From: Candidatus Campbellbacteria bacterium
GTDB lineage: Bacteria > Patescibacteriota > Minisyncoccia > Phycocordibacterales > EsbW-18
Assembly (NCBI GenBank): GCA_024653945.1
Contig: JANLIT010000002.1
Location: 80,255 to 144,254, forward strand
DNA: 64,000 nucleotides
Direction of reading: 5' to 3'
Within the stretch, counting starts at the first letter, position 1, and the number at the start of each line of letters is the position of its first letter. Below, one piece after another: positions 7,209-49,218 of this stretch. Under the pieces are notes generated by a model that ran no database searches, was not told where the DNA came from, and saw only the letters and a list, made by a program, of their open reading frames with translations. Both the position numbers and the translations under genes were made by a program.

Positions 7209-7218
7209 GGCTTACTAC

Positions 7219-7261
7219 TTTTCCCGACGTTTCAGTCGGGACCCCGACCACAGCGTCGGGG
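7219..7261. repeat. Two-hairpin 46-bp repeat, copy A, abutting the xth stop
   Basis: CCCGACGTTTCAGTCGGG plus ACCCCGACCACAGCGTCGGGG. Copies at 22322-22367 and 24344-24392 (inverted) have a few loop changes (copy C almost identical, copy B three or four differences). Confidence 0.65.
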
Positions 7262-8035
7262 CTACTTACTACTTACTTCTAACCCAACCGGGCAGTGATC
7301 GGAGCCGTACACATCCGAAAGTATTTCTGAACGTTTAATTTTTGGAAGAAGATTTTGAGAAACAATAAAGTAGTCCAATCGCCAACCAATATTTCTATCT
7401 CGTGCGCGAGAAATGGTATCCCAATATGAGTAGGCATTTTTTGTGTCGGGATGAAAATGTCGGAATGTGTCAACAAATCCGGCGGAGAGAACTTCATCCA
7501 TCCACGCGCGTTCTTCTGGCAAAAATCCAACGTGTCCTTCATTTTCTTTCGGTCGAGCAATGTCTATTTCTTCATGCGCGACATTGACGTCACCACAAAA
7601 AATCACCTTTTTGCCATTTTTCCTTAGTTTTTTAATGTGTTCCAAAAATGCGTCATAAAAATCAAGCTTGTACTGAAGCTTTTCTGGAGAACCCCCTCCG
7701 TTTGGAAAATAGACATTCAAAAGTACAAAATCTTCAAAAGCGGCTTCAATAAGACGTCCTTGGGTGTTGAACTTTTCAGGTAACACATCAAAAGAGACAC
7801 TTTTAGGCTCTTTTTTTGAGTACACGGCTACACCACTATATCCTTTTCGTTCTTTTGATGAGTTGAAATAGGCAAAATAACCTTCTGGCTTTTGAACTTC
7901 TGGAGAAAGTTGGCCTTCTTCTACTTTCGTTTCTTGAAGGCAAAAAATATCAGGTTTTTCTTGTTCAAACCAATCCCAATACCCTTGATTAAAGAGTGAG
8001 CGAAGTCCGTTTACATTCCACGAGATAATTCTCAT
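7262..8035 (-). CDS. xth: Exodeoxyribonuclease III (AP endonuclease)
   Basis: MRIISWNVNGLRS...IFCLQETK...GDVNVAHEEIDI...SDHCPV are the ExoIII/EEP signatures. The start is taken at MRIIS; the ORF track extends upstream to 8074. The ATG lies within the left flank of MITE copy c. The last four codons plus stop are encoded by CTACTTACTACTTAC. Confidence 0.85.
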   Translation of the reverse strand: MRIISWNVNGLRSLFNQGYWDWFEQEKPDIFCLQETKVEEGQLSPEVQKPEGYFAYFNSSKERKGYSGVAVYSKKEPKSVSFDVLPEKFNTQGRLIEAAFEDFVLLNVYFPNGGGSPEKLQYKLDFYDAFLEHIKKLRKNGKKVIFCGDVNVAHEEIDIARPKENEGHVGFLPEERAWMDEVLSAGFVDTFRHFHPDTKNAYSYWDTISRARDRNIGWRLDYFIVSQNLLPKIKRSEILSDVYGSDHCPVGLEVSSK

Positions 8036-8688: not shown

Positions 8689-11127
8689 CTAATTACTATA
8701 CTTAGTTAGTGGCACTGTTCCGTTTGTTGGTTGTGAATACAGTGTTTGAATTACACAACTAGTGTATGTGAGCCAAGAACTCAACATGGTGTCAGCACCT
8801 ATAACTTGTGTTCCGCTGACTTGTAATGTTGGAAGGTGGCAACCTGGAACCTCACCTCCACCCCCACCTCCGTCTCCGGGAGGAACTGGGGGTACCGGTG
8901 GTCCCACTGGCACCACATTACTATCAAAGAGATACGCGTTACGTATACCTCCGGCCATTATTTTTCCCTGCGGAGTCATAAAGAGGTGTAAAGGTTGTCC
9001 TGCCGATTCACCTATACTGGCTGTTCCATAATCTCGGCGTAGAGGTGCTTCTGCGACACCGGCAAGCGTGCCGTCGTGCCACAAGGTGAAATATCTCTCA
9101 TCAATACCCGGATAACCAGCAAACACCAGGTATGAGCCGGCAACCGCAAAAGCAGGAAATATGGCCATGTCTCGTCTGTTGATATTTGTAAGAACGCTTT
9201 CTGGTACTGTCAATTCTCCTGCAGGTTCCAATCCGTTTGCGCCACTCGTAAAAAGAAAAATTCGATTTGAGTAATTAAGATTTCTTCCCGACTGGCCAGT
9301 GTGTGAAGTCACCGCCAAGCGTTTTGGAGTAGATGTGTAATCAATTGCCACTCTTCCGGGACACAAATTATCCGGCAGTGTTAGTTCTTGTACTGATGTG
9401 ATCCCACCGTCTGATTCGGCTCTGAAAACAGTTGGCGTATACGAGACTGGGGTAGTACACCTGTCAGATGAATTTCCTACGCGTCCAAGTATGTAATCTC
9501 CAAAACCCACAAGAGGTCTCAGCGAGTGTTCCTCTCGCTCCGCAAGTATCTGGAGTGATGGTGTGGAAAGGGTTACATCTCTACCACTGTTTCCATCAAG
9601 ACCAACTTGTACGTTACCGATTACTTTGCCATTGGCGGCGGCAAAGTTACTGTTGCGAATAATAAAATTTGATGAGGGTGAGAAAAGTACACCCCCCCCA
9701 GAAACTTGATAATATCCCGCGTGTTCGGCTCCCGCTCCATACGTATTTCCCGAGACACTTCCACCGTTCGAGCGAACTGCCATAAAAAATCCTCTATCAC
9801 CATCGGCAACCATTTGAGATTCGGCATTTCCGTGGAAGAACAGCGTCTGAAACCTCGAACCACCATCCATGCAAAGATCACGTTGAGAAATAAGTGTACC
9901 ATCATCTTTAAAGAACCACGCTCCACCTTGTCGAAAAGGTGGATATGAGCTCAAGTAATTTTGATCTTTAGGACCACCACACGCACCAGAGAATGCGAAC
10001 GCACCGTTTGCATATGCTGCACTTTGGATATTCTGAGTGCCAAATCTTGGTCCTGGATACACCATTAAATTAGGTAGATCAAGCAGTGTCGCAACAAGCG
10101 GTAATCGCAAACCCGCCTCTGGCGCAGCAACAAAAGGCACTTCAAGATCACAGTGACGCGTTCCGTGAGAATTTGAAACCGTCATAGTAAAGACAGTGTC
10201 TTTTGTTATTGGTCCAGTTACAATACTGCCTGTTTGTTGAGAGTCCGCACGTGCAGGATCTGGAGCACCAACAGTTGGTGTACCTGAAGGAGTAGCTGGA
10301 GCATCATCAGCTTCTATTGAAATAGTTGTTGGTAAATATCCCACGGTGTACGCGAGCGTTACCGTTCCCCCCGTTGCTGTTTCCGGATTACTTCTCATTT
10401 GACAATTTGGTGCGTGGGGAGAGGGTGGTGCACCAGAAGTAACAGTTAAATTTGATGATATGGTGAGGCCGGCATACATGGCGTTAATCTGCGCAACACC
10501 CGCATGAAGTCCCAAAATTTCTTGTAGATTTCCACCGTGAGGAGAACCTGCGTTGTGAATAATCGTACCTTCCTGTGGAGAAGAAAATGTTGTGTAGCCA
10601 CTCACATCATTCCAACTCCCTCCATCGGCACTATATTCGGAACCAAAAATAGCGGGGTTACTACCGGCCTGCACCGTTTGAGGCGCTGGGTTCATGCGCA
10701 AAGATGGCCCGCCAGATGGAGCCGCTGGTTCATACCCAAGAAAAAACAATATTGAAGTTTCAAAAGGACATTGAATTGTTGCGGTTGGGGGATTACCTGC
10801 ATTAATCAACACAAGACGAGAGGTTCCAGCCATTGGCTCTACATCAATACGATATCCCCCAGGAGGTAATGGGGCACCACTATTTGTTGTGTTAACACTC
10901 TGAAAGGTTTGACCATTTCCTGGGAAAAAACGTGATGAGGAAATGACGGTCCCAGCGGGTCCTGTGATAGTAAAGGCGGGGTATGTGTTGAGAGGAAGTT
11001 GGCTACGTGAAAAACCGACACTAATATGATTACATGCATCCACAGCTGATGCGTTTTGAATATTAAACGACGCAAACCCAACAACGCTCAGAGCGACGAC
11101 AGCTATTCCAAGGAGATATTTTTTCAT
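8689..11127 (-). CDS. Large secreted protein (812 aa), possibly beta-helix/adhesin-like
   Basis: Signal peptide MKKYLLGIAVVALSVVGFASFNIQNASA. Gly/Ser/Asn-rich with repeated NG/SG motifs and a C-terminal PPVPPVPPGDGGGGGG linker. Function unknown. Confidence 0.6.
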   Translation of the reverse strand: MKKYLLGIAVVALSVVGFASFNIQNASAVDACNHISVGFSRSQLPLNTYPAFTITGPAGTVISSSRFFPGNGQTFQSVNTTNSGAPLPPGGYRIDVEPMAGTSRLVLINAGNPPTATIQCPFETSILFFLGYEPAAPSGGPSLRMNPAPQTVQAGSNPAIFGSEYSADGGSWNDVSGYTTFSSPQEGTIIHNAGSPHGGNLQEILGLHAGVAQINAMYAGLTISSNLTVTSGAPPSPHAPNCQMRSNPETATGGTVTLAYTVGYLPTTISIEADDAPATPSGTPTVGAPDPARADSQQTGSIVTGPITKDTVFTMTVSNSHGTRHCDLEVPFVAAPEAGLRLPLVATLLDLPNLMVYPGPRFGTQNIQSAAYANGAFAFSGACGGPKDQNYLSSYPPFRQGGAWFFKDDGTLISQRDLCMDGGSRFQTLFFHGNAESQMVADGDRGFFMAVRSNGGSVSGNTYGAGAEHAGYYQVSGGGVLFSPSSNFIIRNSNFAAANGKVIGNVQVGLDGNSGRDVTLSTPSLQILAEREEHSLRPLVGFGDYILGRVGNSSDRCTTPVSYTPTVFRAESDGGITSVQELTLPDNLCPGRVAIDYTSTPKRLAVTSHTGQSGRNLNYSNRIFLFTSGANGLEPAGELTVPESVLTNINRRDMAIFPAFAVAGSYLVFAGYPGIDERYFTLWHDGTLAGVAEAPLRRDYGTASIGESAGQPLHLFMTPQGKIMAGGIRNAYLFDSNVVPVGPPVPPVPPGDGGGGGGEVPGCHLPTLQVSGTQVIGADTMLSSWLTYTSCVIQTLYSQPTNGTVPLTKYSN

Positions 11128-13666: not shown

Positions 13667-13794
13667 TTCCTTGCACGCAAGGACTGCAAAATATCAAATA
13701 CCAAATGACAAACAATCCTGTTATCATTTGGATTAAGGTCGTTGAATTTTTTTGATATTTGTTATTTGAACTTTGTAATTTATTTTAAATATTT

Positions 13795-14334
13795 ATGACC
13801 ATAATCAAACAGAAGGCACAGCGTGTTGCCGTTTTTATCGACGCGCAAAATCTCTATCATAGTGCACGACATCTCTACAGCGCTCGCGTTAATTTCGCAG
13901 CAATCGTTAAGGATGCAATAGGGGAGCGACCGCTCATTCGTGCAATCGCATACGTTATTTCTACCGAATCAGGTGAAGAAAAAACATTTTTTGAAGCTCT
14001 TACCAAAATGGGTATTGAGGTAAAAACAAAAGATTTACAAATTTTTGCAGGAGGCGCTAAGAAAGCTGACTGGGATGTTGGACTTGCTATGGACGCAGTG
14101 AAACTCGCACCAAAGTTGGATGCCGTTGTCATTGTGTCTGGAGACGGAGACTATGTTCCGCTCGTTGAGTACTTGCAGATTAGCCAAGGATGTCAGGTGG
14201 AAGCCATCGCATTCGGACGCTCAACATCTGCAAAACTCATTGAAGCCGCAGACCACTTCACCAATCTTGATGACGATCCCCGCAAGTACCTCATGGGGTA
14301 CCGCGGACGAAATGAGAGAAAAAATGTCAAATAG
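13795..14334 (+). CDS. NYN-domain protein (LabA/DUF88-like)
   Basis: VAVFIDAQNLYHSARH...AIAYV...VVIVSGDGDYVPLVEYLQ is the NYN/LabA motif set. Confidence 0.7.
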   Translation: MTIIKQKAQRVAVFIDAQNLYHSARHLYSARVNFAAIVKDAIGERPLIRAIAYVISTESGEEKTFFEALTKMGIEVKTKDLQIFAGGAKKADWDVGLAMDAVKLAPKLDAVVIVSGDGDYVPLVEYLQISQGCQVEAIAFGRSTSAKLIEAADHFTNLDDDPRKYLMGYRGRNERKNVK

Positions 14335-14340
14335 CAAATA

Positions 14341-14393
14341 GTAGAAAGTAGAAGGTAGAAGGTAGAAAGTAGTAAGTAGAAGGTGGTAAGCAA
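14341..14393. repeat. Low-complexity (AGTAGAAAG/GTAGAAG)n tract
   Basis: agtagaaagtagaaggtagaaggtagaaagtagtaagtagaaggtggtaagc. Its reverse complement belongs to the (TACTTN)n motif class seen at many gene ends in the window. Confidence 0.6.
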
Positions 14394-14875: not shown

Positions 14876-14931
14876 GCGTGCCAGATTAGAGACACCGCAG
14901 TACGCAATGGCCTTTGGCCAAGGAGGTAAAG

Positions 14932-15369
14932 ATGGCGAGAGCACAGAAGTCCAAGCTTTCCACGATGGGTTCCCTGATGAAGGCAATCAGGGAGGCACTC
15001 AACCGACAAGTCAGCGTCGCGGCGGTGGAGATCAACTACCGCCTCACCCTCACCGCCGACGAGGTCCGTTCGACCCCCTGGCTTGCGGGTCTCGGGACAC
15101 AGCCCCTGAACCCCGAAGAGATTGCTGGACAACACGAGCTCCACAAACTCATCGAGGGCATTCTCCACCAGGAGAAGTTCCTCTCCAAGAGGGAGAAAGA
15201 GGTCCTGAGGCTCTACTTCGGGTTTGGGTGCAAGGAACACTCAACCTTCAAAGAGGTGGGGAAAGTTCTAGGGATTAGCGCCAACTGCGCCTGCCAGCAC
15301 CTCCACAAGGCCGTTAAGAAGTTGCGCCGTTCCCCCAAAGGACGGCAACTCGAGGCCTTCCTCAAGTAG
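14932..15369 (+). CDS. Sigma-70 region 3/4-only protein (145 aa) lacking region 2
   Basis: LSKREKEVLRLYFGFGCKEHSTFKEVGKVLGISANCACQHLHKAVKKLRR is a sigma70 region-4 HTH. No region 2 (-10 recognition) is present in this or any neighbouring ORF. SD AAGGAGG. Confidence 0.55.
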   Translation: MARAQKSKLSTMGSLMKAIREALNRQVSVAAVEINYRLTLTADEVRSTPWLAGLGTQPLNPEEIAGQHELHKLIEGILHQEKFLSKREKEVLRLYFGFGCKEHSTFKEVGKVLGISANCACQHLHKAVKKLRRSPKGRQLEAFLK

Positions 15370-17789: not shown

Positions 17790-20042
17790 ATGAAAAGCAA
17801 AACATTTGAGGTGGCCTTTGGTAACAAGACCCTCTCCGCAGAGTTTAACGACCTCGCCATGCAGGCGAACGGTTCGGTGATTGTTCGCTATGGCAACACC
17901 GCCGTTCTTGCAACTGCAGTCATGGGTTCAAAGGAACGTGAAGGACTGGATTATTTTCCTCTCACCGTTGATTACGAAGAAAAGTTTTACGCTGCGGGAC
18001 AAATTCTTGGAGGCAAGTACATGCGCCGAGAAGGGAAGCCGTCGGATGAAGCAATTCTCTCTGGTCGCGCAGTGGACCGCACAGTGCGTCCGCTCTTTGA
18101 CCAGCGTTTGCGTATTGAGGTGCAAGTTGTCACGACCATTCTTTCAATTGGAGAAGACGACCCAGATGTTATTGCCATTCTTGCAGCATCTCTCGCACTC
18201 AGCGTGTCAGATATTCCATGGGCAGGACCAGTTGGTGCAGTTCGTCTTGGGCGAACACCAGACGGCGCGTGGATAATTAACCCAAACTACGAAGAACGCA
18301 AAACAAATGTGCTTGATTTGCTTGTATGTGGTGCACAACAAAAGGTGAACATGATTGAAACGGGTGCACACCAAGTTTCTGAAGACATTATTATTGAAGG
18401 ACTCACCAAAGCAGTTGAAGAAATTACAAAACTTGAAACATTCCAAAACAATATCATCAAAGAATTAGGAAAAGAGAAAAAAGTATTCACATTTCCAACA
18501 CTCACCGATGCTACTCTCGCACTTTTTGAAAAAGAAATCACACCACAACTTACAGATGCCGTGTTCTGTGGTATTTCTGGTGGAGAAAAAGTTGGTGAAC
18601 TACACCACGCATGGCATGAGCTCCTCAAAACAAGTGCACCCGAGGAAAGTCGTGAACTAGCAGACTTATATTTTGAAGAAAAAGTTGAAGCGGTGTTTGA
18701 CGTTGGAATTCTTTCAGGTAAACGACCTGATGGACGCGACTTTGATACAGTTCGAGAAATCTACACACAAGCAGGAGGCGTTGCGCCAATGCTTCACGGT
18801 GCGGGTGTCTTCTACCGAGGTGAAACACACGTGCTTGCAGCACTCACGCTCGGTGGTCCTGAAGCGGTACAAGAAATGGAAGGGATGGAGGTCAAAGGCA
18901 AAAAAAGCTTTATGTTACACTACAATTTTCCTCCGTACTCAACAGGTGAAACGGGGCGCATGGGTGGCACTAACCGCCGCATGATTGGTCACGGAGCACT
19001 CGCAGAAAAAGCACTCTCCGCCGTTATTCCTCCAAAAGAGCAATTCCCATACACCATTCGTATTGTGTCAGAAGTGATGTCATCAAACGGTTCATCATCA
19101 ATGGGTTCCGTGTGCGGAGGAACGCTTGCACTTCTTGATGCGGGTGTGCCTATTCTTGCCCCTGTTGCAGGTATTGCGATGGGAGTAGTTATTGAAGAAA
19201 TATCAAATGACAAATCACAAATAGCAAAGTATAAGGTGCTTACGGATATTCAAGGACCGGAAGATCACTACGGTGACATGGACTTCAAAGTTGCAGGAAC
19301 GCGCGACGGTGTGACCGCAATGCAAATGGATGTGAAAGTTGCTGGAGTTCCACTTTCTGTTTTTCCAGAAGCATTTGAAAAAGCAAAAAAAGCGCGTCTC
19401 TTCATTTTGGATAAAATTGCAGAGACATTACCAACACACCGTGCAGAAATGAATGTACACGCACCACGTATTCTCGTCACAAAGATTAAAAAAGAATTTA
19501 TTGGTGCAGTGATTGGTGGCGGAGGAAAAACAATCAACCAAATCCGTGAACTAACCGGAACAGAAATTACGATTGAAGAAGATGGAACGGTCTTCATCAC
19601 AGGAAATGTTGAAGGGGCAGAGAAAACAAAGAAAATTATTGAAGGGATTGCGCGTGAGTATCTTGTTGGAGAAAAGTTCGAGGGTGTTGTCACACGCATC
19701 GCAGACTTTGGTTTGTTTGTGCGCATGGGCGATGAAAGCCCATTATCTGGAATGAAGGACACTGAAGGACTCGTGCACATTTCTGAAATTGCACCGTTTC
19801 GTCTTGCATCAATGGACGGTGTTGCAAATGTTGGAGACAAAGTACCCGTCATCATCAAAGAACTTGGTGAAGAAGGAAAAATTAAACTCTCTATCAAAGA
19901 TGCTGATCCTGAATTTGCCGTACGCAAAGGTTTGAAAGAGGGAACTTCCGCTGGAGGAGATTTCCGTTCAGGTGGAGACCACCGACACAGTTCTGGAGGA
20001 TACCGAGGTGGTTCAAGCCACCACAGCGGGCCACGGAGATAG
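17790..20042 (+). CDS. pnp: Polyribonucleotide nucleotidyltransferase (PNPase)
   Basis: 750 aa with two RNase PH domains, KH (IGAVIGGGGKTINQIRE) and S1 (GEKFEGVVTRIADFGLFV) domains, and a Gly/Ser/His-rich C-terminal tail. Confidence 0.92.
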   Translation: MKSKTFEVAFGNKTLSAEFNDLAMQANGSVIVRYGNTAVLATAVMGSKEREGLDYFPLTVDYEEKFYAAGQILGGKYMRREGKPSDEAILSGRAVDRTVRPLFDQRLRIEVQVVTTILSIGEDDPDVIAILAASLALSVSDIPWAGPVGAVRLGRTPDGAWIINPNYEERKTNVLDLLVCGAQQKVNMIETGAHQVSEDIIIEGLTKAVEEITKLETFQNNIIKELGKEKKVFTFPTLTDATLALFEKEITPQLTDAVFCGISGGEKVGELHHAWHELLKTSAPEESRELADLYFEEKVEAVFDVGILSGKRPDGRDFDTVREIYTQAGGVAPMLHGAGVFYRGETHVLAALTLGGPEAVQEMEGMEVKGKKSFMLHYNFPPYSTGETGRMGGTNRRMIGHGALAEKALSAVIPPKEQFPYTIRIVSEVMSSNGSSSMGSVCGGTLALLDAGVPILAPVAGIAMGVVIEEISNDKSQIAKYKVLTDIQGPEDHYGDMDFKVAGTRDGVTAMQMDVKVAGVPLSVFPEAFEKAKKARLFILDKIAETLPTHRAEMNVHAPRILVTKIKKEFIGAVIGGGGKTINQIRELTGTEITIEEDGTVFITGNVEGAEKTKKIIEGIAREYLVGEKFEGVVTRIADFGLFVRMGDESPLSGMKDTEGLVHISEIAPFRLASMDGVANVGDKVPVIIKELGEEGKIKLSIKDADPEFAVRKGLKEGTSAGGDFRSGGDHRHSSGGYRGGSSHHSGPRR

Positions 20043-20141: not shown

Positions 20142-20230
20142 TTGACAAATATTATTATTTATGTATAATGGAGTTTGGACATACCCAACCCGAGTATTCC
20201 ACTTGAGTTGGTTCGAGAACGGGGGGAAAA
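20142..20230 (+). promoter_or_regulatory. Promoter (TTGACA-16-TATAAT) plus conserved leader hairpin of small-membrane-protein cassette 1
   Basis: TTGACAaatattattatttatgTATAAT, then TACCCAACCCGAGtattccaCTTGAGTTGG, a 9/10-bp stem. It is homologous to 29099-29192. Confidence 0.55.
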
Positions 20231-22268: not shown

Positions 22269-22321
22269 ATTTCCCAAAACGAAGTCCCGCCTCTTGTAAG
22301 AGGCGGGGCGTTTCTATTTTC

Positions 22322-22367
22322 TTTTCCCGACGTTTCGGTCGGGACCCCGACCGTAGCGTCGGGGCTA
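22322..22367. repeat. Two-hairpin 46-bp repeat, copy B
   Basis: CCCGACGTTTCGGTCGGG plus ACCCCGACCGTAGCGTCGGGG, followed by CTACTTACTAC. Confidence 0.65.
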
Positions 22368-22445
22368 CTTACTACATTCTACTTATTATTTTCTTATTCT
22401 TTTTTGAGTTTTGGATTTCACATTTTAGTTTTATACTATTCATAT

Positions 22446-24340: not shown

Positions 24341-24343
24341 ATA

Positions 24344-24392
24344 GTAGCCCCGACGCTATGGTCGGGGTCCCGACTGAAACGTCGGGAAAAGT
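24344..24392. repeat. Two-hairpin 46-bp repeat, copy C (inverted orientation), immediately 3' of the DksA-like stop
   Basis: The reverse complement reads CCCGACGTTTCAGTCGGG plus ACCCCGACCATAGCGTCGGGG. Confidence 0.65.
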
Positions 24393-24405
24393 AGAAAGCA
24401 AAAAG

Positions 24406-24437
24406 AAAAACCGCGAGCCCTAAAGCTGGCGGTTTTT
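24406..24437. terminator. Bidirectional terminator
   Basis: AAAAA, stem CCGCGAGC/GCTGGCGG, TTTTT. Confidence 0.55.
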
Positions 24438-24448
24438 GACGAAAGAAC

Positions 24449-24835
24449 TTAGTAATCTCGTCTATGACGCTCGTCATAGCTCGCGAAGATGCTGTGCCAA
24501 TCAAAAACAACTTCCTCCAACAAAAGTAGAAGGTCATTCTTGGAAGGGTGGTTGTGAATGTAATTTTCTTCCCCACACACAGGGCAACGAACATGACACA
24601 CACCCACCCCGGAAGGAGTCCAATAATCACCTCCAGAGCAACTAAAAGGTGAAACATAATTCATCTTCTGAATGAATGCCCACTGGTGGAGGGGTCGACG
24701 ACTGTTACACCTCTGACACTTAAAGTTGAATTTGCGAGCAATGTTGAGCTTCTTGGAGCGCGCTTCCCTAAGAGCTTCGTTGAGTCGCCTCTCTTCTGCG
24801 TTGACCTCTCTAAACAACTTCGCAACGTTGGTCAT
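24449..24835 (-). CDS. Hypothetical zinc-ribbon protein
   Basis: CQRCNS...CHVRCPVCGEE Cys pairs. The start is taken at MTNVAKLF. Confidence 0.4.
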   Translation of the reverse strand: MTNVAKLFREVNAEERRLNEALREARSKKLNIARKFNFKCQRCNSRRPLHQWAFIQKMNYVSPFSCSGGDYWTPSGVGVCHVRCPVCGEENYIHNHPSKNDLLLLLEEVVFDWHSIFASYDERHRRDY

Positions 24836-24957
24836 GTGTGTCTCCTTAGCAAGCAACAAATCTATCGCGAGTGTATACGCTCACTACCACATAGTCAATT
24901 TAAAAAGAAGCCCGCCATTCTTTGAAAGAATGGCGGAGTTTTTTGGTGCTGTGTTGT

Positions 24958-25200
24958 TCAACCGTCAGAATCGTACCAAATAAGTTCATTTTGGTCTAAG
25001 GGCGGTGGAATAATCTTCGCGCCCTTGCGGTAATCTTCTAGAGTTATACCAACCATTACGCGCAACGTTCCGTCGTGTTGTACAACAATGTCAATTCTCA
25101 GAAACGAGAGGTCTCTCTGAGACAGTTGCCACGCAATCTGTTCGGCAATCTGCTCTTGGTTCATGGGACCGACGACCACATCAACCAGTCCATCTTTCAT
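24958..25200 (-). CDS. Hypothetical protein (80 aa)
   Basis: Intact ORF. No recognisable domain. Confidence 0.35.
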   Translation of the reverse strand: MKDGLVDVVVGPMNQEQIAEQIAWQLSQRDLSFLRIDIVVQHDGTLRVMVGITLEDYRKGAKIIPPPLDQNELIWYDSDG

Positions 25201-25264
25201 GATTTCTCCTTTCGAGTCTGTACGAATCTACACAAAACATACTCGCAAGATACATTACTGTCAA

Positions 25265-25373
25265 TTTTTCTTTCTACTTTTTACATACTACTGATTTTAT
25301 CCTTGGTATTTGTTTCGAATTTCGATATTCGGATTTTCATTGGTTATTGTTACTTGGCCCTTGGTTATTCCAA
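25265..25373 (+). repeat. ~110-bp upstream repeat, copy 1 (homologous to 29781-29890), containing a tandem (ATTTCG)n-like tract
   Basis: TTTTTCTTTCTACTTTTTACATACTACT...TTTCGAATTTCGATATTCGGATTTTCATTGGTTATTG..TTGG..TTATT aligns with 29781-29890. It ends ~40 bp before the comM GTG start. Confidence 0.6.
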
Positions 25374-25409
25374 GATTTTATCCTTCCTTTATCTCAAAAG
25401 GATAAAATC
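25374..25409 (+). promoter_or_regulatory. Hairpin GATTTTATCC...GGATAAAATC enclosing the only SD-like AAAGGA upstream of comM
   Basis: 10-bp arms at 25374-25383 and 25400-25409. A third GATTTTATCC lies at 25293-25302. Confidence 0.3.
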
Positions 25410-25414
25410 TTGGC

Positions 25415-26977
25415 GTGTCCTTCGCAAAAGTATACAGTGCCCAAACGTCTCTACTCGCGGCTCATATTATTTCCGTCGAGGTGGATGTTTCTAATGGTCT
25501 TCACGCGTTTTCAATTGTGGGACTTCCTGACAAGGCGGTTGAGGAATCTCGCGACCGCGTATCTGCCGCAATAAAAAATAGCAATTTTGAATCGCCCAAA
25601 AGTCGCAACCAAAAAATAGTTATCTCTCTTGCACCGGCCGATATCAAAAAAGAAGGGCCATTGTTTGATGTTGCCATTGCACTTGCATATCTGCGTTCAC
25701 AAGACGATATTCGTTTTAATCCAGAGAAAAAATTATTTCTCGGTGAACTTTCTCTTGATGGGGACGTTCGGCGCATCAGTGGTGTTCTTCCTCTTGTTAT
25801 CAAAGCACAACAAATGGGTTTCACGGAGGTGTTTGTGCCAAGCGACAACACGGCAGAGGCTGCGCTTGTTCGAGGGATTTCCGTGTTTGGTATACGCACA
25901 CTCAAAGAACTCATTGTTCATCTCAATGAAAAGAAAAATCCTGATGATGACGGTAATGATATTCCTAAAATAAAAATACCAACAACACCCGAGACAGAAT
26001 ACATTCCAACGGTTGCACAACACAGTATTGATTTCTCAGATGTGCGCGGACAAACAACGGCAAAACGCGCTCTAGAAATCGCCGCCGCAGGCGGACACAA
26101 CATCGCACTGTGGGGTCCGCCCGGTACAGGAAAAACACTCCTTGCAAAAGCACTCGTGGGTATTCTTCCACCACTCTCATTTGATGAAATGTTAGAAGTA
26201 ACAGCGATTCATTCTGTTGCAGGATTACTTAAAGAACACACCGTCACACACCCACCGTTCCGCTCACCTCACCACACGAGTTCATATGTTTCACTCGTTG
26301 GTGGGGGTGCATTTCCAAAGCCCGGAGAAATTACGCTTGCACATCGTGGTGTTCTTTTCCTAGATGAATTTCCTGAATTTGATAGGCGCGTGATTGAAAG
26401 TTTGCGACAACCACTTGAAGACCGCGTCGTGTCTGTTGCTCGCGTCCGCGGAAGTGCGCAATTTCCTGCAGATACACTCTTGGTCGCCGCACTCAACCCT
26501 TGTCCGTGCGGTAAATGGGGAAGTGGGCGCGCGTGCACCTGCTCACCCCATATTCTTCTTCACTACCAACGGAAAATATCTGGACCAGTGATGGATAGAA
26601 TTGATTTGTGGGTTGAGGTTGCACCGGTTGAACACGCGGACCTTTCTCGTGGAGGGGACGGTGAAGCAAGCGCTGTTGTGCGAGAACGTGTACTGTCTGC
26701 GCGAGCTCTACAGACAAAAAGATTTGAAAACACTACCCGTAGAAAAAACAGCGATATGAATGTGCGGGACCTAGATATATTCACGCCTCTCACAAAAGAG
26801 GTCCGCGACATTCTCAACACATCAGCAAAAAAGTTGGACCTCTCAGCACGTGCGTACCATCGAGTTATTAAAATTGCACGCACCATTGCCGATTTAGAAA
26901 ATACAGAACACATAGAACGCCATCACATTCTTGAAGCGCTCCAATATCGTCCGAAAATGTTTGGAGCTGGAATGTAA
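25415..26977 (+). CDS. comM: YifB/ComM-family Mg-chelatase-like AAA+ ATPase
   Basis: GTG start. The N-terminal ChlI-like domain aligns with YifB from residue 1. Walker A GPPGTGKT. Cys cluster CPCGKWGSGRACTC. Typical C-terminal domain. Confidence 0.85.
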   Translation: MSFAKVYSAQTSLLAAHIISVEVDVSNGLHAFSIVGLPDKAVEESRDRVSAAIKNSNFESPKSRNQKIVISLAPADIKKEGPLFDVAIALAYLRSQDDIRFNPEKKLFLGELSLDGDVRRISGVLPLVIKAQQMGFTEVFVPSDNTAEAALVRGISVFGIRTLKELIVHLNEKKNPDDDGNDIPKIKIPTTPETEYIPTVAQHSIDFSDVRGQTTAKRALEIAAAGGHNIALWGPPGTGKTLLAKALVGILPPLSFDEMLEVTAIHSVAGLLKEHTVTHPPFRSPHHTSSYVSLVGGGAFPKPGEITLAHRGVLFLDEFPEFDRRVIESLRQPLEDRVVSVARVRGSAQFPADTLLVAALNPCPCGKWGSGRACTCSPHILLHYQRKISGPVMDRIDLWVEVAPVEHADLSRGGDGEASAVVRERVLSARALQTKRFENTTRRKNSDMNVRDLDIFTPLTKEVRDILNTSAKKLDLSARAYHRVIKIARTIADLENTEHIERHHILEALQYRPKMFGAGM

Positions 26978-27018
26978 TAACAAATTTCAAATGACAAATA
27001 GCAAATGACAAACAATAT

Positions 27019-27558
27019 ATGAAAGCACTTACCTTAGAAACACTTGCGGAACGAATTTACTTCATTCGCAATAAACGAGTAATGACCGATAGTGATTTGG
27101 CAGAATTATATGAAGTAACAACAAAAGTACTCAACCAAGCAGTCCGAAGAAATATGGAGCGTTTTCCAGAAGATTTTATGTTTCAACTCACCAAAGAGGA
27201 GAACTTGATATTCCAAAGTGGAACATCAGGTTCTAGATATTTGAAGTCACAGTTTGTGACTTCAAGGTCGTGGGGTGGCCGACGCAAGCCAGTGTTCGTA
27301 TTTACTCAGGAGGGAGTTGCCATGCTTTCTGGAATACTTCGTAGCCCAAGGGCGGTGCAAGTTAATATTGTCATTATGCGCGCATTTGTGCATCTTCGGG
27401 AAATACTTTCCACACACAAAGAGCTTTTGCAACGACTTATCGAGCTAGAGAAAAAATACGACGAACGGTTTAGAATTGTGTTTGAGGCAATTCAGCAGAT
27501 GATGCGCGAACCAGACCCGCCAAGACATCCAATTGGATTTCAACCAAACACCAAATAG
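27019..27558 (+). CDS. ORF6N-domain (KilA-N-like) DNA-binding protein
   Basis: The N-terminal IYFIRNKRVMTDSDLAELYEVTTKVLNQAVRRNMERF fits the ORF6N/KilA-N family. Confidence 0.6.
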   Translation: MKALTLETLAERIYFIRNKRVMTDSDLAELYEVTTKVLNQAVRRNMERFPEDFMFQLTKEENLIFQSGTSGSRYLKSQFVTSRSWGGRRKPVFVFTQEGVAMLSGILRSPRAVQVNIVIMRAFVHLREILSTHKELLQRLIELEKKYDERFRIVFEAIQQMMREPDPPRHPIGFQPNTK

Positions 27559-27590
27559 TTTTGAATTTTGATATTTGAAATTGGTCATTA

Positions 27591-27626: not shown

Positions 27627-27746
27627 TTGGGTATTTCTAGATCAAAACCCGTAGTGCGTGACCCCACTCACTACCGGCTCCACCCTAGAATTTCTTTACT
27701 GTTTTTCTCATGTGCTTTCTACTTTCTACCTACATACTATCTACTA

Positions 27747-27760
27747 CATACCAGCTACCA
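27747..27760. repeat. Intergenic copy of the 14-mer CATACCAGCTACCA within a (TACNNN)n tract
   Basis: Identical to the tandem 14-mers inserted in pcrA at 30218-30245. It lies just 3' of the M23 peptidase stop. Confidence 0.6.
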
Positions 27761-27764
27761 TTCT

Positions 27765-28793: not shown

Positions 28794-29098
28794 AAAAGAA
28801 ATGGACGAGCCAAAATCACGATAGGGAGATAGTATATGGTGAGGTTAATGGTAATCCTGCTTTGTCTGGCGTTCCCACCAAGGTGGGAGGATTCTTCACT
28901 TCTGCAACCCTTACAATTCTACGGGAATGGAGATAAAGGGGCAATAAAGAAGTGGACTACTCCGTGGATAAAAATTATGTCAAAAACGGCTCTACAGAGC
29001 CGTTTTTTGGATTTTAGACACCCCGTGGACTATTGACATCACACATGTTTTCATTGTAAAAAACATTTCCAATGTAACTTTTTGGACACATGGCAGGA

Positions 29099-29192
29099 TT
29101 GACAAATACTATAATTCGTATATAATAGCGTCTGAATGTACCCAACCCGAGCATTTCGCTTGAGTTGGCTCAAAAACAAGGGGAGATGTCCC
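29099..29192 (+). promoter_or_regulatory. Promoter (TTGACA-16-TATAAT) plus conserved leader hairpin of small-membrane-protein cassette 2
   Basis: TTGACAaatactataattcgtaTATAAT, then TACCCAACCCGAGcatttcgCTTGAGTTGG, ending in SD GGGGAG. It is homologous to 20142-20230. Confidence 0.55.
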
Positions 29193-29710: not shown

Positions 29711-29780
29711 TATTCTCGTCTCTGCCACCACTATCGCCCGCCGGCCAAGCAACATGCACAAGCATGTGCTCGGTCGGCGG

Positions 29781-29890
29781 TTTTTCTTTTCTACTTTCTA
29801 CTTACTACTTTCTACTCGTTTAGGTTTCGGATTTCGATATTCGAATTTCGTATTTTCATTGATTATTGGTGCTTGGTTATTGGTCATTTC
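29781..29890 (+). repeat. ~110-bp upstream repeat, copy 2, upstream of pcrA
   Basis: TTTTTCTTTTCTACTTTCTACTTACTACT...TTTCGGATTTCGATATTCGAATTTCGTATTTTCATTGATTATTGGTGCTTGGTTATTGG aligns with 25265-25373. Confidence 0.6.
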
Positions 29891-29984
29891 TTACCGCTTA
29901 CTACTTACTACTTTCTACTCTTGTTTGTATTTTGTTATTTGCCATTTGATATTTGCTATTTGGCCACCATGCTATTATGCGTCC

Positions 29985-31946
29985 ATGCACTACCTTGAAA
30001 GCCTCAATCCTGCACAAAAACGAGCTGTTTCACATACTGACGGTGCTCTTATGATTATTGCTGGTGCCGGGACAGGAAAGACACGCGTCATAACCACCCG
30101 CATACTCCACCTTATTAATAGTGGTGTCCTTCCCGAGAAGATTCTCGCCATTACCTTCACCAATAAAGCGGCGACCGAGATGCGCGAACGGGTTGGACAT
30201 CTCCTTGGAACCGACCTACATACCAGCTACCACATACCAGCTACCACCTCTCCTTTTGTGGGAACCTTTCATTCCCTCGGTGTCAAAATCTTGCGAGAAA
30301 ATGTGACACGTCTTGGTGTGACAAAGTACTTCACCATTTTTGACCGCGATAATTCTCTTTCGGCAATCAAACGAATTGTAAAAGACCTCGGATTAGATCC
30401 CAAACAACATTCACCAAACGCATTTCTCTCCGTTATTTCAAAAAACAAAGGCGAGGCAACAACACTTTCAAAGTTTAAGGAAAAAAGTGGGCTCAACTAT
30501 TTTGAGCGACTCGTTGTTCCTGTGTGGGAGAAATACGCCGAGGTGCTTACAAAAGAAAAAGCATTTGATTTTGATGATTTACTTCTTTCTACATTGGAAC
30601 TCCTCAAAAAGAATCCAGATATTCTTGAACACTACCAGAAGCGTTGGTCACACATTCACGTTGATGAGTATCAAGACACCAACACGGTGCAGTATGAACT
30701 CACCAAACTACTCGCGAGCGGACATGGGAATATTTGTGTTGTCGGTGACCACGACCAATGCATTTACACATGGCGAAGTGCCGACATGCGCAATCTCGCG
30801 CGATTTGAAAAAGATTTCTCCCACGTAACAGTTGTGATGTTGGAAGAAAATTATCGTTCAACACAAACAATTCTCTCTGCAGCAAATAGCGCCATCGCAC
30901 AAAATGAATTTAGAAAAGAAAAGAATTTGTTTACTAACAGTGCTGATGGAGCAAAAATAGAACTCTACACTGCGGCAAATGAAAATGACGAAGCAATGTG
31001 GATTGCTGCGCGTGCTGCAGAATTAATTGCGTCTGGTACTCCCGCAAACGAAATCGCCGTGTTGTTTCGTGCAAACTTTCAGTCACGCGTACTTGAAGAA
31101 GCGTTTCTCAACACGCACGTACCATACCAAATGCTTGGTGTACGTTTTTTTGAACGAAAAGAGGTGAAGGATATTCTCTCGTACATTATTGCCGCACTTA
31201 ATCCAGACAGCACAACCGCTATTTCTCGAATTATAAATGTTCCAGCGCGCGGTATTGGAAAAACAACACTCCTTAAAATTCTTTCATACCAAGAACATGA
31301 CTTGCCAGCAAAGATGAAAGAAAAGATTGAACGATTTCGTGCGCTACTTGGACGCATTGCGGAATACACCCACACACACAAACCATCCGAGGTAGTTAAA
31401 TTTGTCATCAAAGAAAGTGGAATTGAATTAGACCTCATACATGGAGGTGATGACGACATTGAACGTCTCGCCAACATGAAAGAGCTCGCCACACTCGCGG
31501 TGCGATATGACACTCTTCCACCAGAAGAGGGCGTCTCAACATTTTTGGAAAACGCATCACTGGCAAGTGATCAAGACGCACTCCGCAATGACGAATCATC
31601 GGTGAAACTTATGACCATTCACGCTGCAAAAGGGCTTGAATTTGCTCATGTTTTTATTTCTGGTCTTGAAGAGGGGCTCTTTCCCGATGAACGAAGTGAG
31701 ACGCGCGAAACACCCGAGGAACGCGAGGAGGAACGCCGACTTTTTTATGTTGCACTCACACGTGCACGACACCAAGCACATCTTTCGTACGCATTTATCC
31801 GCACCATTTTCGGAACACCAACCATCAACACACCGTCACGATTTATAACTGAAATGGATAGTGAGCTTGTGGAAGATGTTACCCCTACAAATGAGTGGAA
31901 ACCCCAAGGAGGTTTTGGAAAAGGCCTTTTGGATATAGATTTTTAA
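29985..31946 (+). CDS. pcrA: UvrD/PcrA-family ATP-dependent DNA helicase carrying an in-frame low-complexity insertion
   Basis: Walker A AGAGTGKT, motifs TFTNKAA, VDEYQDTN, and the C-terminal helicase domain. The start is taken at MHYLESLNPAQKRAV; the upstream in-frame extension in the ORF track is low-complexity. An insert DLHTSYHIPATTSP is encoded by tandem CATACCAGCTACCA. Confidence 0.85.
   Translation: MHYLESLNPAQKRAVSHTDGALMIIAGAGTGKTRVITTRILHLINSGVLPEKILAITFTNKAATEMRERVGHLLGTDLHTSYHIPATTSPFVGTFHSLGVKILRENVTRLGVTKYFTIFDRDNSLSAIKRIVKDLGLDPKQHSPNAFLSVISKNKGEATTLSKFKEKSGLNYFERLVVPVWEKYAEVLTKEKAFDFDDLLLSTLELLKKNPDILEHYQKRWSHIHVDEYQDTNTVQYELTKLLASGHGNICVVGDHDQCIYTWRSADMRNLARFEKDFSHVTVVMLEENYRSTQTILSAANSAIAQNEFRKEKNLFTNSADGAKIELYTAANENDEAMWIAARAAELIASGTPANEIAVLFRANFQSRVLEEAFLNTHVPYQMLGVRFFERKEVKDILSYIIAALNPDSTTAISRIINVPARGIGKTTLLKILSYQEHDLPAKMKEKIERFRALLGRIAEYTHTHKPSEVVKFVIKESGIELDLIHGGDDDIERLANMKELATLAVRYDTLPPEEGVSTFLENASLASDQDALRNDESSVKLMTIHAAKGLEFAHVFISGLEEGLFPDERSETRETPEEREEERRLFYVALTRARHQAHLSYAFIRTIFGTPTINTPSRFITEMDSELVEDVTPTNEWKPQGGFGKGLLDIDF
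30213..30252 (+). repeat. In-frame tandem 14-mer (CATACCAGCTACCA x2) inside pcrA
   Basis: Positions 30218-30231 and 30232-30245 are identical, and identical to intergenic 27747-27760. Confidence 0.65.
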
Positions 31947-40445: not shown

Positions 40446-41108
40446 GTGGTGGTTAATATAGTACATTGTATGAACGAAGAATCTCAAAAAATCATCAAAG
40501 AAAAATTTGCCCAGCTTCCTCCTGCTTTACAAAAAGCATTTACGGAGATTGATCTTTTGGGTCGTGTGCGAAATATCATAACCAAAAATAATCTGCGAGT
40601 GGACGACGGGGGGTTGTTTGAGGATGAGGTTATGTTTATATTACTTGGTTTAGAGCATCCAAATAACTTTATTGCGAACCTTACCACCCGACTGCATGTT
40701 CCCCTTATCACTATTGAAAAACTTGTTATTGATGTAGAGAAGGAAGTTTTTCTTCCTGTGAGAGAGTCCTTGATGAAGATGTTTCCAACTGGGGAACACG
40801 GAGCAACCCCCGAAAAACTACCTGTCGCACCAGCAACGTCTCAACAACACTCCCCAACCGTTATCTACCCGCAAAAACCCGCCGTACAAGCACCAGTATC
40901 ACAAGCGGTACCTCCTGCAAATCTTCCAATCACACCACAACCACAGACAGCCCCTGGACTAACCCGCACACTTCCAAAAGATATTGTACAAACAAAACTT
41001 GAACAAAGTTTCCGCATGCCTCCAACAACGACAACCATTAAAGAAAGTACGCCACCAACACCTGTGACACAAAAGGTGGTAGATCCGTACCGCGAACCAA
41101 CTGAGTGA
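40446..41108 (+). CDS. Hypothetical protein with a Pro/Thr/Gln-rich C-terminus (alternative start at 40470)
   Basis: The ORF track starts at GTG 40446. The first ATG (MNEESQK) is at 40470. Confidence 0.4.
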   Translation: MVVNIVHCMNEESQKIIKEKFAQLPPALQKAFTEIDLLGRVRNIITKNNLRVDDGGLFEDEVMFILLGLEHPNNFIANLTTRLHVPLITIEKLVIDVEKEVFLPVRESLMKMFPTGEHGATPEKLPVAPATSQQHSPTVIYPQKPAVQAPVSQAVPPANLPITPQPQTAPGLTRTLPKDIVQTKLEQSFRMPPTTTTIKESTPPTPVTQKVVDPYREPTE

Positions 41109-41196
41109 CATGTAGCATGTAGCACGAAGCATGTAACATGTAGCTTGAAACAAGAAGTTTTAGAAAAAATTTAGGACAGGGAGTTATTGTATACTG

Positions 41197-41559: not shown

Positions 41560-41605
41560 GATATATAACGTGTATCATGTAGCATATAATGCACAACAAA
41601 AATAT

Positions 41606-41633
41606 GTTACATGTTTCGTGTTACATGTTTCGT
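41606..41633 (+). repeat. Tandem 14-bp direct repeat GTTACATGTTTCGT x2, immediately upstream of the PrgI-like gene
   Basis: 41606-41619 and 41620-41633 are identical. Related CATGTAGC/CATGTAAC motifs cluster at 41109-41150 and 41576-41590, flanking the four-helix-bundle gene. Confidence 0.55.
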
Positions 41634-41641
41634 GTCCTACC

Positions 41642-48441: not shown

Positions 48442-48479
48442 AAAAAGATGGACTTCTAAATTAGAAGTCCATCTTTTTG
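48442..48479. terminator. Bidirectional terminator between the T4SS-like cluster and yidC
   Basis: AAAAAGATGGACTTCTA...TAGAAGTCCATCTTTTT. Confidence 0.7.
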
Positions 48480-48483
48480 CTTG

Positions 48484-49218
48484 CTACTTACTACTTACTA
48501 CTTTTTCCGTATCCAATTTCTTTCGTATCATTCCTTCTTGTGCAATTGAAAAAAGGTTGCTTGTTGTCCAGTACAGAGCGACACTTGCTGGGAGTGCGTA
48601 TGAAATAAACACAATGATGACAGGGAAGACATATTTCATTTGGAGTGACATACTTTTTGCAAAATCTGCACCAAACCCCTTTTTACTTCCAACCTCTGGC
48701 GCCTTCATAAAGTACGCTTGAAAAAATTGAGAAACACCAGCAAGAACGGCTAGGGGTATGCTTTTTTGAGCAACATCAAGAAATCCAAGAAACATTGTTG
48801 AAATAGAACCTGGGTTTGATACAAATGAGTACAGAAAATCGGGGTGAATTTCAGGTAATCCTGTACGCACAAACATGTAATACAGCCCAAAAATAATGGG
48901 AATTTGGACAAGGAGAAAGAAGATACTTGCAAAAGGATTTACCTTATATGCCTTATACAGCTTCATCGTTTCCTGTGCTTGTCTGGCTGAATCATTTTTA
49001 AACTTTGTACGCACCTCATCCATCGCGGGCTGAATATTTTGCATTGCCATCTGTGTTCGAAGCGCTTTTTGTGCAAGAGGAAAGAGAATAAATCGTACGA
49101 TAACCGTAAAGACAACAACAATCACACCCAGGTCCGCCCACGGAAGTGCGTGCATGAGAATTACAACACCGTTGTAGAGAGGTTGTGTAACGAGTGTAAA
49201 GAAAAAACCTTGAGACAT
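48484..49218 (-). CDS. yidC: Membrane protein insertase YidC/Oxa1 family (short form)
   Basis: Five TM helices with the conserved Oxa1/YidC core (PLAQKALRTQMAMQNIQP...VNPFAS). The C-terminal ...VVSSK* is encoded by CTACTTACTACTTAC. Confidence 0.85.
   Translation of the reverse strand: MSQGFFFTLVTQPLYNGVVILMHALPWADLGVIVVVFTVIVRFILFPLAQKALRTQMAMQNIQPAMDEVRTKFKNDSARQAQETMKLYKAYKVNPFASIFFLLVQIPIIFGLYYMFVRTGLPEIHPDFLYSFVSNPGSISTMFLGFLDVAQKSIPLAVLAGVSQFFQAYFMKAPEVGSKKGFGADFAKSMSLQMKYVFPVIIVFISYALPASVALYWTTSNLFSIAQEGMIRKKLDTEKVVSSK

Follow-up and report, generated by a model that had tools for sequence, protein, structure and literature searches.

Related mosaic heptanucleotide-repeat tracts upstream of comM and pcrA in Candidatus Campbellbacteria, members of a genome-wide class of intergenic 7-bp arrays

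The DNA analysed here is a 64,000-nt stretch, hereafter the window, of a Candidatus Campbellbacteria bacterium (assembly GCA_024653945.1, contig JANLIT010000002.1, positions 80,255 to 144,254 of the forward strand; coordinates given without a locus name are those of the window). Its plus strand carries a YifB/ComM-family Mg-chelatase-like AAA ATPase gene (comM, 25415..26977, +), which scores 567 bits against TIGR00368 with a cutoff of 362, and a UvrD/PcrA-family helicase gene (pcrA, 29985..31946, +), which scores 698 bits against the pcrA model, under the equivalog cutoff of 911. The comM-pcrA interval holds an ORF6N gene, a minus-strand LysM-M23 peptidase gene and small membrane open reading frames (ORFs). 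Each of the two genes is preceded by a T-rich tract of about 110 bp, at 25265-25373 and 29781-29890, and these tracts are the subject of this study. A sequence-only reading of the window had described them as two related copies lying 40-100 bp upstream of DNA-metabolism genes and had proposed that they form a shared regulatory module such as a competence-box analogue. The placement holds, given that copy 1 ends 41 nt before the comM GTG (25415) and copy 2 ends 94 nt before the pcrA ATG (29985), and both gene families are upheld by the profile scores.

Both tracts are built from 7-nt units, which were labelled as families A (CTACTTN), B (TTTCGNA), C ((A/C)TTGGTN) and D (ATTTGNN); a further unit is CATGTAN. 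The architecture of each tract is (CTACTTN)n, then (TTTCGNA)3-4, then four TTGGTN heptads. The three-part anatomy described in the earlier reading is thereby retained, but the unit is the heptamer TTTCGNA and not a hexamer ATTTCG, and there are three clear units in copy 1 and four in copy 2 in place of four to five, each run being closed by one degenerate TTTTCAT. In copy 1, block A is a T-run with degenerate (CTACTTN) heptads, TTTTTCTTTCTACTTTTTACATACTACTG (25265..25293, +), block B reads TTTCGAA TTTCGAT ATTCGGA (25313..25333, +), and a 41-nt core consists of ATTTTC, four TTGGTN-type heptads and ATTCC (25331..25371, +). In copy 2, block A runs from the T-run of a terminator into (TTTCTAC/TTACTAC) heptads (29781..29818, +), block B has four TTTCGNA heptads (29825..29852, +), and the 41-nt core lies at 29850..29890 (+). 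The heptads of copy 2 extend 75 bases past the end that the earlier reading had assigned, up to 29965, as (CTTACTA)n followed by (ATTTGNN)n (29887..29965, +), and this block pair recurs inverted at 14322-14393 (78% identity over 72 nt).

The two copies are related, as had been claimed. Positions 25265-25369 and 29782-29888 are collinear and 71% identical over 107 nt in an unmasked BLASTN comparison, the best ungapped match spans 57 nt at 79%, and the exact 13-mer ATTTCGATATTCG is common to both. The Smith-Waterman score of the copies is 46, whereas dinucleotide shuffles score 12.5 +/- 2.1 (maximum 20). Permutations of the heptad order of copy 2 score 17.8 +/- 3.4 (maximum 36), and none of 1000 reaches the 44 of the intact heptad chain, which indicates that the copies share block order beyond composition. 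In a comparison set of 1.52 Mb, made up of the window and fetched loci, the middle block TTCGnnnTTCGnnnTTCG (TTCG every 7 nt, at least three times) is confined to the two tracts.

The tracts were compared with those of close relatives, sampled at about 64 kb per genome from one syntenic region, or about 8% of a genome. L081 (from Logan) covers comM to pcrA; L083, a metagenome-assembled genome from NCBI and the outgroup of the clade set, covers pnp to pcrA; L082 and L105, from one Joint Genome Institute sample, cover comM and pcrA, respectively; and L104 (CP064977.1, an 811-kb genome) covers pnp to traG. Protein identity is 91-95% among the window, L081, L104 and L082/L105, and 86-90% against L083. 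Fourfold-degenerate sites of comM and pcrA are merely 46-55% identical within the clade. L081 is nested inside the clade, its PcrA being 93.7% identical to that of the window.

At comM, block A of copy 1 abuts the -35 element of a sigma-70-like promoter, TTGACA-17-TATGTT (25236..25264, -), which would drive a divergent operon of ORFs 24958-25200 and 24449-24859 and whose counterpart in L082 is TTGACT-17-TATAGT. The spacer between a dksA-like gene and comM that carries this operon is about 1.1 kb in the window (24341-25414), L082 and L104, as opposed to 76 nt in L081 (2680-2755); the operon comprises a 75-80-aa ORF that is not conserved and the gene of a conserved CxxC…CPxC zinc-ribbon protein of 131-136 aa. 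On the comM side, a 16-bp stem-loop lies outside the tract and ends 1 nt before the comM start (25370..25413, +; dG -22.2, z -6.5). It is kept in the window, L082 (1088-1124), L083 (7343-7372) and L104 (about 6412-6447), with compensatory changes on both sides at five pairs, and retains the outer arms ATTTTATC / GATAnAnT. Its 3' arm holds a Shine-Dalgarno-like AAGGA/GAGGAG, or a -10-like TAAAAT/TACAAT/TACAGT 6 nt from the start, and it exists even without a heptad tract, L083 having short arrays only. The stem-loop could be a translational or transcriptional control hairpin. The strong hairpin of the comM locus derives from this stem-loop, separate from the tract, and a promoter scan yielded no assignable promoter for comM.

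At pcrA, the intrinsic-terminator hairpin of a small upstream ORF (29738..29780, +; dG -32.5 kcal/mol, z -6.5) is followed by a U-tract that forms the first bases of copy 2. An extended -10-like TGcTATTAT (29970..29978, +) lies 6 nt before the pcrA ATG, and TGnTATnAT occurs 6-7 nt before the ATG in five genomes: the window (region 29970-29987), L081 (5800-5821), L083 (10792-10809), L104 (10046-10063) and L105 (113-133). A Shine-Dalgarno sequence is absent before the pcrA ATG in all five. From this arrangement we infer an extended -10 promoter and a leaderless or near-leaderless pcrA mRNA; as the predicted -10 lies 3' of the copy-2 heptads, the tract would be positioned upstream of the likely core promoter. 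The dksA-like gene has a similar TGnTAAGAT 8-9 nt before its ATG. No sigma-70 promoter was found inside the tracts, where the heptad TTG recurs every 7 bp but never 16-18 bp from the pcrA -10. Since the T-rich tract is stop-free in the pcrA frame, the longer pcrA ORF that opens at 29649 (765 aa) is an artefact. Close PcrA homologues are publicly called at 653 to 673 aa, and the repeats cause this annotation artefact as well.

The tracts themselves fold no better than shuffled sequences (z -1.6, -0.8, +0.3 and +0.7). Searches with Rfam covariance models returned no match with E<=1 on the tracts, only tRNAs reaching the gathering score, and no purine-rich arm with which the T-rich tracts would pair in a long hairpin is predicted (z -1.6, -0.8 and -0.9).

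The tracts are not isolated features of the window. A lag-autocorrelation scan of the window found 18 period-7 segments covering 790 bp and 12 segments at period 14, whereas the remaining periods from 4 to 15 gave 0-5 segments each, and dinucleotide shuffles predict 0.4 (global) or 0.9 (local) period-7 segments. Although 84% of the window is coding, 14 of its segments are intergenic and 4 coding; the other loci, with 85% coding, have 93 intergenic and 45 coding segments. Array density is thus about 12-18 times higher in intergenic than in coding DNA. Units are reused, CTACTTN-type units being found at about ten sites in the 64 kb and ATTTGNN-type units at about eight, and the neighbours of the arrays comprise rpsO, an NYN-domain gene, pnp, the dksA-like gene, comM, ORF6N, the M23 peptidase gene, pcrA, a 23S-rRNA-IVP-like gene, prgI and yidC. 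Among 80 loci of Paceibacteria, period 7 leads with 2728 bp, followed by period 14 with 2008 bp and the others with 237-1719 bp, and period-7 arrays are present in 33 of the 80 loci with many different AT-rich units. The two tracts are paralogous copies of a mosaic heptad-repeat tract within this genome-wide intergenic class of 7-bp arrays.

Other members of the class in the window are an inverted pair of (ATTTGNN) arrays between rpsO and the NYN-domain gene (13685..13783); (AAATNNC)n followed by (AGTAGAA)n, ten heptads in all, between the NYN gene stop and a terminator (14321..14390); (CAAATNN)n between the comM stop and the ORF6N gene, expanded relative to L082 (26976..27015), with an inverted partner, (TTTTGAN)n / ATTGGTC, after ORF6N (27555..27589); a heptad tract directly after the M23 peptidase stop codon (27687..27764); (CATGTAG)n (41103..41149), whose inverted partner lies at 41601-41635, the pair flanking a 23S-rRNA-IVP/bAvd-like gene; and (CTTACTA)n adjoining a terminator shared with yidC (48471..48514). 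One D-type tract, AAATATC AAATGAC AAATCAC AAATAGC, lies in frame inside the polynucleotide phosphorylase gene pnp (19194-19231), where it forms a 6-residue insertion, EEISNDKSQIAK as compared with DENAKG in L083. Inverted heptad arrays thus flank three small accessory genes, encoding the NYN-domain, ORF6N and 23S-rRNA-IVP/bAvd-like proteins (array pairs 13748-13783 / 14321-14390, 26976-27015 / 27555-27589 and 41103-41149 / 41601-41635). ORF6N and both of its arrays are missing in L081 and L083, and L104 keeps a flanking array without the gene. The array-flanked NYN and ORF6N genes, of 179 aa each, were considered as paralogues, which was rejected on comparison.

Many Paceibacteria have cores of 15-95 nt enclosed by an A-rich array on one side and its T-rich reverse complement on the other, and some of these cores are strong hairpins (-18 to -20 kcal/mol). 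Such inverted pairs number 16 among 156 arrays, nearly always with the A-rich array first, and resemble greatly extended bidirectional terminators; examples are L013 7662-7839, L019 9298-9398, L062 2163-2297, 4567-4729 and 9861-9996, L066 16348-16470 and L075 8668-8793. A strand rule seen by eye in the window (A-rich after stops, T-rich before starts) was rejected: among 83 other loci, 21 arrays near starts are A-rich and 17 T-rich, and those near stops number 15 and 9. A scan of metagenome contigs with the core junction, TTYGNATTTTCATTGRTYATTG, returned 20 matches, nearly all of them chance, and among these L089, L092 and L093 carry unrelated heptad arrays. Those of L092 (about 1290-1440) and L093 (about 240-400), at GC contents of 0.53-0.65, consist of (TTGGTCA)n with inverted CCAATGACC copies around a hairpin. 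As L092 and L093 are from unrelated, GC-richer organisms, heptad arrays of the TTGG type are not confined to the candidate phyla radiation (CPR).

Comparison of the relatives identified a conserved element within the tracts. The 41-nt core GNATTTTCATTGGTTATTGnTnCTTGGTTATTGGTnATTTC is found upstream of both comM and pcrA in three lineages, namely the window, L082/L105 and L104, and the block order of the composite A-[B or D]-core is retained at both genes in all three. To this extent the idea of a shared module stands, the copies being homologous. Core identity is 78-90% in all ten pairs, as opposed to a compositional expectation of 35% and to the 46-55% of fourfold sites. The window comM core shares 83% identity with its orthologues in L082 and L104 and 78-90% with the copies on the pcrA side, and the window pcrA core is 85% identical to that of L105 pcrA and 90% to that of L104 comM, so that orthologues are no closer than paralogues. 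Within the clade loci, TTTCATTGRT is restricted to the composite tracts, and the single-copy junction TTTCATTGGT is seen in each of the six instances but at no other place.

The heptads themselves vary in a patterned manner. Mismatches between neighbouring heptads cluster in about two of the seven phases, with z-scores of 8.9 in the window, 9.1 in the relatives and 10.6 in the 80 loci under within-array permutation, and the effect persists at lag 14 (z 7.0) and lag 21 (z 5.3). A 14-mer higher-order repeat was considered as the cause of this pattern and rejected, given that mismatches are commoner at lag 14 than at lag 7 (0.36 vs 0.31) and that the phase effect persists. The majority base has a frequency of 0.55 in the two most variable phases and 0.87 in the other five, a post-hoc split for which the permutation z serves as the test. 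Slippage with random mutation does not predict patterned mismatches, whereas arrays of recognition sites do. Together with the core, this pattern suggests that the heptads and the four-heptad core are probably under sequence constraint.

Around the core, the arrays turn over rapidly, gaining and losing 7- or 14-bp units and whole blocks, and blocks are replaced. L083 has just 3-5 D-type heptads at comM and pcrA and no core. At pcrA, block B has one unit in L105 and four in the window, and C-type heptads number about four in the window and eight in L105, where they form four 14-mers; the second A-D block of the pcrA tract is present in the window only and missing in L105 and L104. The L104 comM tract carries an additional D block. 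The site at the M23 stop codon bears differing heptad insertions in the window, L082 and L104 and none in L081 and L083. The array that separates comM from ORF6N arose by growth of a seed that is visible in L082. In place of the TTTCGNN units of the window, the comM tracts of L082 and L104 contain units of the TTTGATA type. This T/C difference recurs at equal phase in three consecutive heptads, and the window pcrA tract also has the C state, for which gene conversion between the comM and pcrA loci is probably the simplest account.

Bacterial heptanucleotide repeats of several kinds provide a frame for these arrays, and it is very probable that the tracts belong to this class of repeats, of the long simple sequence repeat (LSSR) or short tandemly repeated repetitive (STRR) kind. 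Heptanucleotide LSSRs were described by Mrazek, Guo and Shah (2007); as summarised in later papers (PMC4679880, PMC4692102), they resemble the window arrays in the over-representation of 7-nt units, in their intergenic location and in length variation between relatives, and slippage is their accepted origin. Relative to LSSRs as outlined in those summaries, the window tracts differ in being mosaics of several unit families in conserved order, in having about five fixed and two free positions per unit, and in their CPR host. Cyanobacterial STRRs are 7-bp repeats in which few unit types occupy many intergenic loci, with hairpin-forming inverted pairs and no established function (PMC2670836, PMC4692102). 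The window arrays share with them the reuse of few unit types at many intergenic loci and the inverted pairs, but STRR arrays usually have one near-perfect unit each and belong to another phylum, and the arrays are not STRRs in the strict sense, the host being Candidatus Campbellbacteria and not a heterocystous cyanobacterium, and the units differing from the named STRR units. One STRR unit, TTGGTCA, resembles the TTGGTNA heptads, although such a resemblance is no test of relatedness.

TAACTGA repeats and G-rich heptamers are likewise on record with no established function. The TAACTGA repeats of marine Beggiatoaceae, Cyanobacteria and Bacteroidetes have been suggested, though not shown, to bind a regulator (PMC4679880). 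Like the window arrays, they are heptamer direct repeats at many intergenic sites before functionally unrelated genes; they have one fixed unit in 2-6 copies within a few nt of the start codon, whereas the window tracts are longer mosaics of several unit families at variable distance, with the pcrA tract upstream of its likely promoter. The (ATCTTTC)n repeats of H. influenzae hmw1A/hmw2A are perfect repeats in the 5' untranslated region (UTR) that pair with a G-rich arm and undergo cleavage by RNase III (PMC12721329). These, too, are T-rich heptamers upstream of a gene, with unit numbers that differ between isolates, but no such hairpin is predicted at the tracts, and the pcrA tract seemingly lies upstream of the promoter.

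The closest precedent for heptads that are read by a protein is plasmid pSM19035, in which 7-10 contiguous 7-bp repeats, direct or inverted, overlap promoters and are bound by the ribbon-helix-helix (RHH) protein omega/ParB, at least four contiguous heptads being required for full activity (PMC9499535). The window tracts share the contiguous direct or inverted units in promoter regions, with conserved inner and degenerate edge positions, and they provide at least four contiguous 7-bp sites without gaps, there being four in the conserved core and eight in L105. They differ in that the pSM19035 consensus WATCACW is absent from both tracts, that the neighbouring and small ORFs examined yielded no gene for an RHH or ParA protein, and that they are chromosomal, occupy many loci and have several unit types; protein binding at the tracts is proposed here purely by inference.

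Taken as a whole, the reading that we favour, at about even odds, is that the tracts are slippage-evolving heptad arrays that serve as a probably dispensable platform for a heptad-binding protein. Units would be gained and lost by slipped-strand mispairing, with gene conversion passing sequence between the comM and pcrA loci, two processes that are well supported. The arrays would be bound cooperatively by an abundant small protein with affinity for nucleic acids, with one heptad per protomer or dimer, on the model of omega/ParB of pSM19035 on 7-bp WATCACW arrays. The effect would be modulatory and dispensable, consisting either of insulation of promoter-proximal DNA from the upstream unit or of its repression or activation, with no gene-specific competence switch. 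As judged from the layout of signals, the tract appears to fill the spacer between an upstream unit, represented by a terminator at pcrA and by a divergent promoter at comM, and the likely core promoter. The platform component is a possibility that we rate at somewhat below even. A 151-aa protein of the window (14914-15369) has only a sigma-70 region-4 domain (E 2e-11), lies behind a consensus promoter and is conserved in L083, and the B, C and D heptads repeat T(T/C)G at 7-bp intervals, a triplet that resembles the first bases of a -35 box; this protein is a speculative candidate for the array reader.

Several observations weigh against a platform. L081 has no tract at comM or pcrA, which indicates that the tract is dispensable, and the window has no heptad array upstream of the dksA-like gene, where L081, L083 and L104 keep one. 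Core and start codon are separated by variable distances of about 25 to 95 nt, and core conservation was measured on three lineages and two loci only. No heptad vocabulary common to the Paceibacteria was found, the units being lineage-specific, and consistent orientation of arrays relative to genes is absent outside the window. No match to an RHH/Omega-type protein was found among 20 small window ORFs and neighbours, a search that returned only an HU (972-1250) and the sigma-70 region-4-only protein. The small ORF beside copy 1 is not conserved among relatives, unlike the 136-aa zinc-ribbon protein behind it. Concerted evolution can keep a unit consensus without function, as in satellite 'libraries', and a DNA-level role and an RNA-level role are inseparable on sequence alone.

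The chief alternative is that the tracts are functionless heptanucleotide simple sequence repeats (SSRs), in which polymerase slippage favours 7-nt units that only non-coding DNA tolerates, and molecular drive, by slippage and gene conversion, maintains the consensus and spreads variants between loci, conservation being a by-product. According to summaries of the LSSR work, heptamers form the most common class of long SSRs in many bacteria, which is explained by polymerase slippage (PMC4679880, PMC4692102). The fast turnover among close relatives, with whole tracts lost in L081, the diversity of units across Paceibacteria without a general orientation rule, and arrays without a significant fold or Rfam match all agree with this account. 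Nevertheless, slippage and conversion would be expected to make all seven positions uniform, yet about two phases are hypervariable and about five are kept, also at lags 14 and 21; the junction TTTCATTGGT is beyond the reach of drive within an array, yet it is kept six times where silent sites are about 50% identical; and orthologous loci keep their block order. We regard absence of function as somewhat unlikely. A shared, gene-specific operator acting on comM and pcrA together, in the manner of a box of a competence or DNA-damage regulon, is the part of the earlier proposal that did not survive and is improbable. The composite with its 41-nt core does occur only upstream of comM and pcrA in the roughly 64 kb examined per genome in three lineages, but both genes are without it in the nested L081, with short arrays only in L083, the TTTCGNA block is not conserved among relatives, and the distance to the start varies. 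The tract is absent from the other competence-type or DNA-metabolism genes that were sampled, namely dnaA, dnaN, ruvB, a PilB-like ATPase gene and a XerC-like integrase gene in the window and polA, ruvB, ruvC, dnaN and dnaA in L106. The heptad families adjoin unrelated genes, lie once inside pnp and, as TTGGTN heptads, also follow the stop codons of pcrA and of the M23 gene in L104 and L105. The streptococcal cin-box TACGAATA has no sense-strand match in the tracts, and its matches of 7/8 on the opposite strand are of a kind found 63 times in the window. Further boxes of competence and SOS promoters are the ComK box, the CRP-S site and the LexA/Cheo box. The sole likeness of the tracts to such boxes is a common sequence before two DNA-metabolism genes; the sense-strand motif, the fixed distance and the other sampled genes are lacking, and the tract is lost in a close relative.

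The tracts could also act at the RNA level, as a 5' leader or terminator-proximal RNA that offers an RNA-binding protein an unstructured U-rich platform or periodic triplets, or, in a variant, as an SSR of the 5' UTR whose effect depends on its length, as with (ATCTTTC)n of H. influenzae hmw1A. Precedents are hmw1A (PMC12721329) and the TAACTGA repeats (PMC4679880), and candidate proteins would be S1, Csp or CsrA, as proposed for the latter. On their purine-rich strand, many arrays read (UAG-N4)n or (CAA-N4)n and are bounded by a stop codon and a terminator, and the 16 inverted pairs would pair as RNA around terminator-sized cores or small genes. A protein of the HutP type, which binds UAG-N4 repeats, would be a further candidate. 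The two tracts, however, are in the U-rich and not the UAG orientation, they lack a significant fold and a purine-rich partner, and the conserved extended -10 of pcrA lies 3' of the tract, 6-7 nt from the ATG, so that the tract is probably not in the pcrA mRNA; an RNA-level role is quite improbable. Least credible of all, and extremely unlikely, is a non-autonomous element resembling a miniature inverted-repeat transposable element (MITE), or the end of an inserted gene cassette. Two similar copies lie 4.5 kb apart and arrays accompany accessory insertions, ORF6N and the divergent two-gene operon being missing in L081 and L083, but neither copy shows terminal inverted repeats or a target-site duplication, the many copies of a MITE are not found, the metagenome-contig scan revealed no element family, and the array flanking ORF6N grew from the L082 seed and hence has no fixed terminus.

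An extension of the favoured reading to the whole of the CPR is unlikely. Arrays would act as genome-wide punctuation, with one small DNA- or RNA-binding protein per unit family, each family having a conserved core of 4-5 nt, polymerising on them. Terminator-promoter boundaries would be marked, accessory genes would be flanked by arrays in inverted pairs, and the 41-bp core of four heptads would serve as a specific operator through which one such protein acts on both comM and pcrA. No literature report of heptad arrays in CPR was found in a search of incomplete scope.

Further conserved elements were observed in the window. A double-hairpin element of 60 nt, CCCCGACgctatgGTCGGGG-TCCCGACtgaaacGTCGGGA, is present in three copies (7205-7266, -; 22311-22369, -; 24343-24404, +) that are 90-95% identical, lie at gene ends and are flanked by AGTAG heptads. 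A perfect TTGACA-N16-TATAAT promoter with a conserved leader of about 60 nt (…ACCCAACCCGAG…TTGAGTTGG…GGGGA) occurs twice, each time before a small membrane ORF (20142-20227 and 29099-29184; also in L104 at about 9640-9730), and the one at 29099-29184 stands at the head of the small-ORF unit that ends in the terminator preceding copy 2. The LysM-M23 peptidase gene is preceded by a stretch of about 230 nt of non-coding sequence (28794-29030, -) that is conserved well above silent sites, with counterparts in L081 (5414-5650), L083 (10038-10270) and L104 (9327-9560). No Rfam family matches this stretch, which could correspond to a leader or a riboswitch-like RNA, as yet undescribed, of a gene for a cell-wall hydrolase.

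If the tracts are products of slippage only, the finding is an ordinary one. A practical consequence is that stop-free T-rich tracts mislead gene callers, the start calls of pcrA homologues being affected (658-673 instead of 653 aa). Gene regulation in CPR/Patescibacteria is almost unknown and recognisable regulators are very few. In front of two genes, the core persists across lineages with nearly saturated silent sites. If the proposed reading is true, heptad arrays of intergenic DNA that contain conserved cores would offer a handle on the proteins that organise transcription units in minimal genomes, and would bear on why repeats of 7 nt, of all lengths, accumulate in bacterial genomes.

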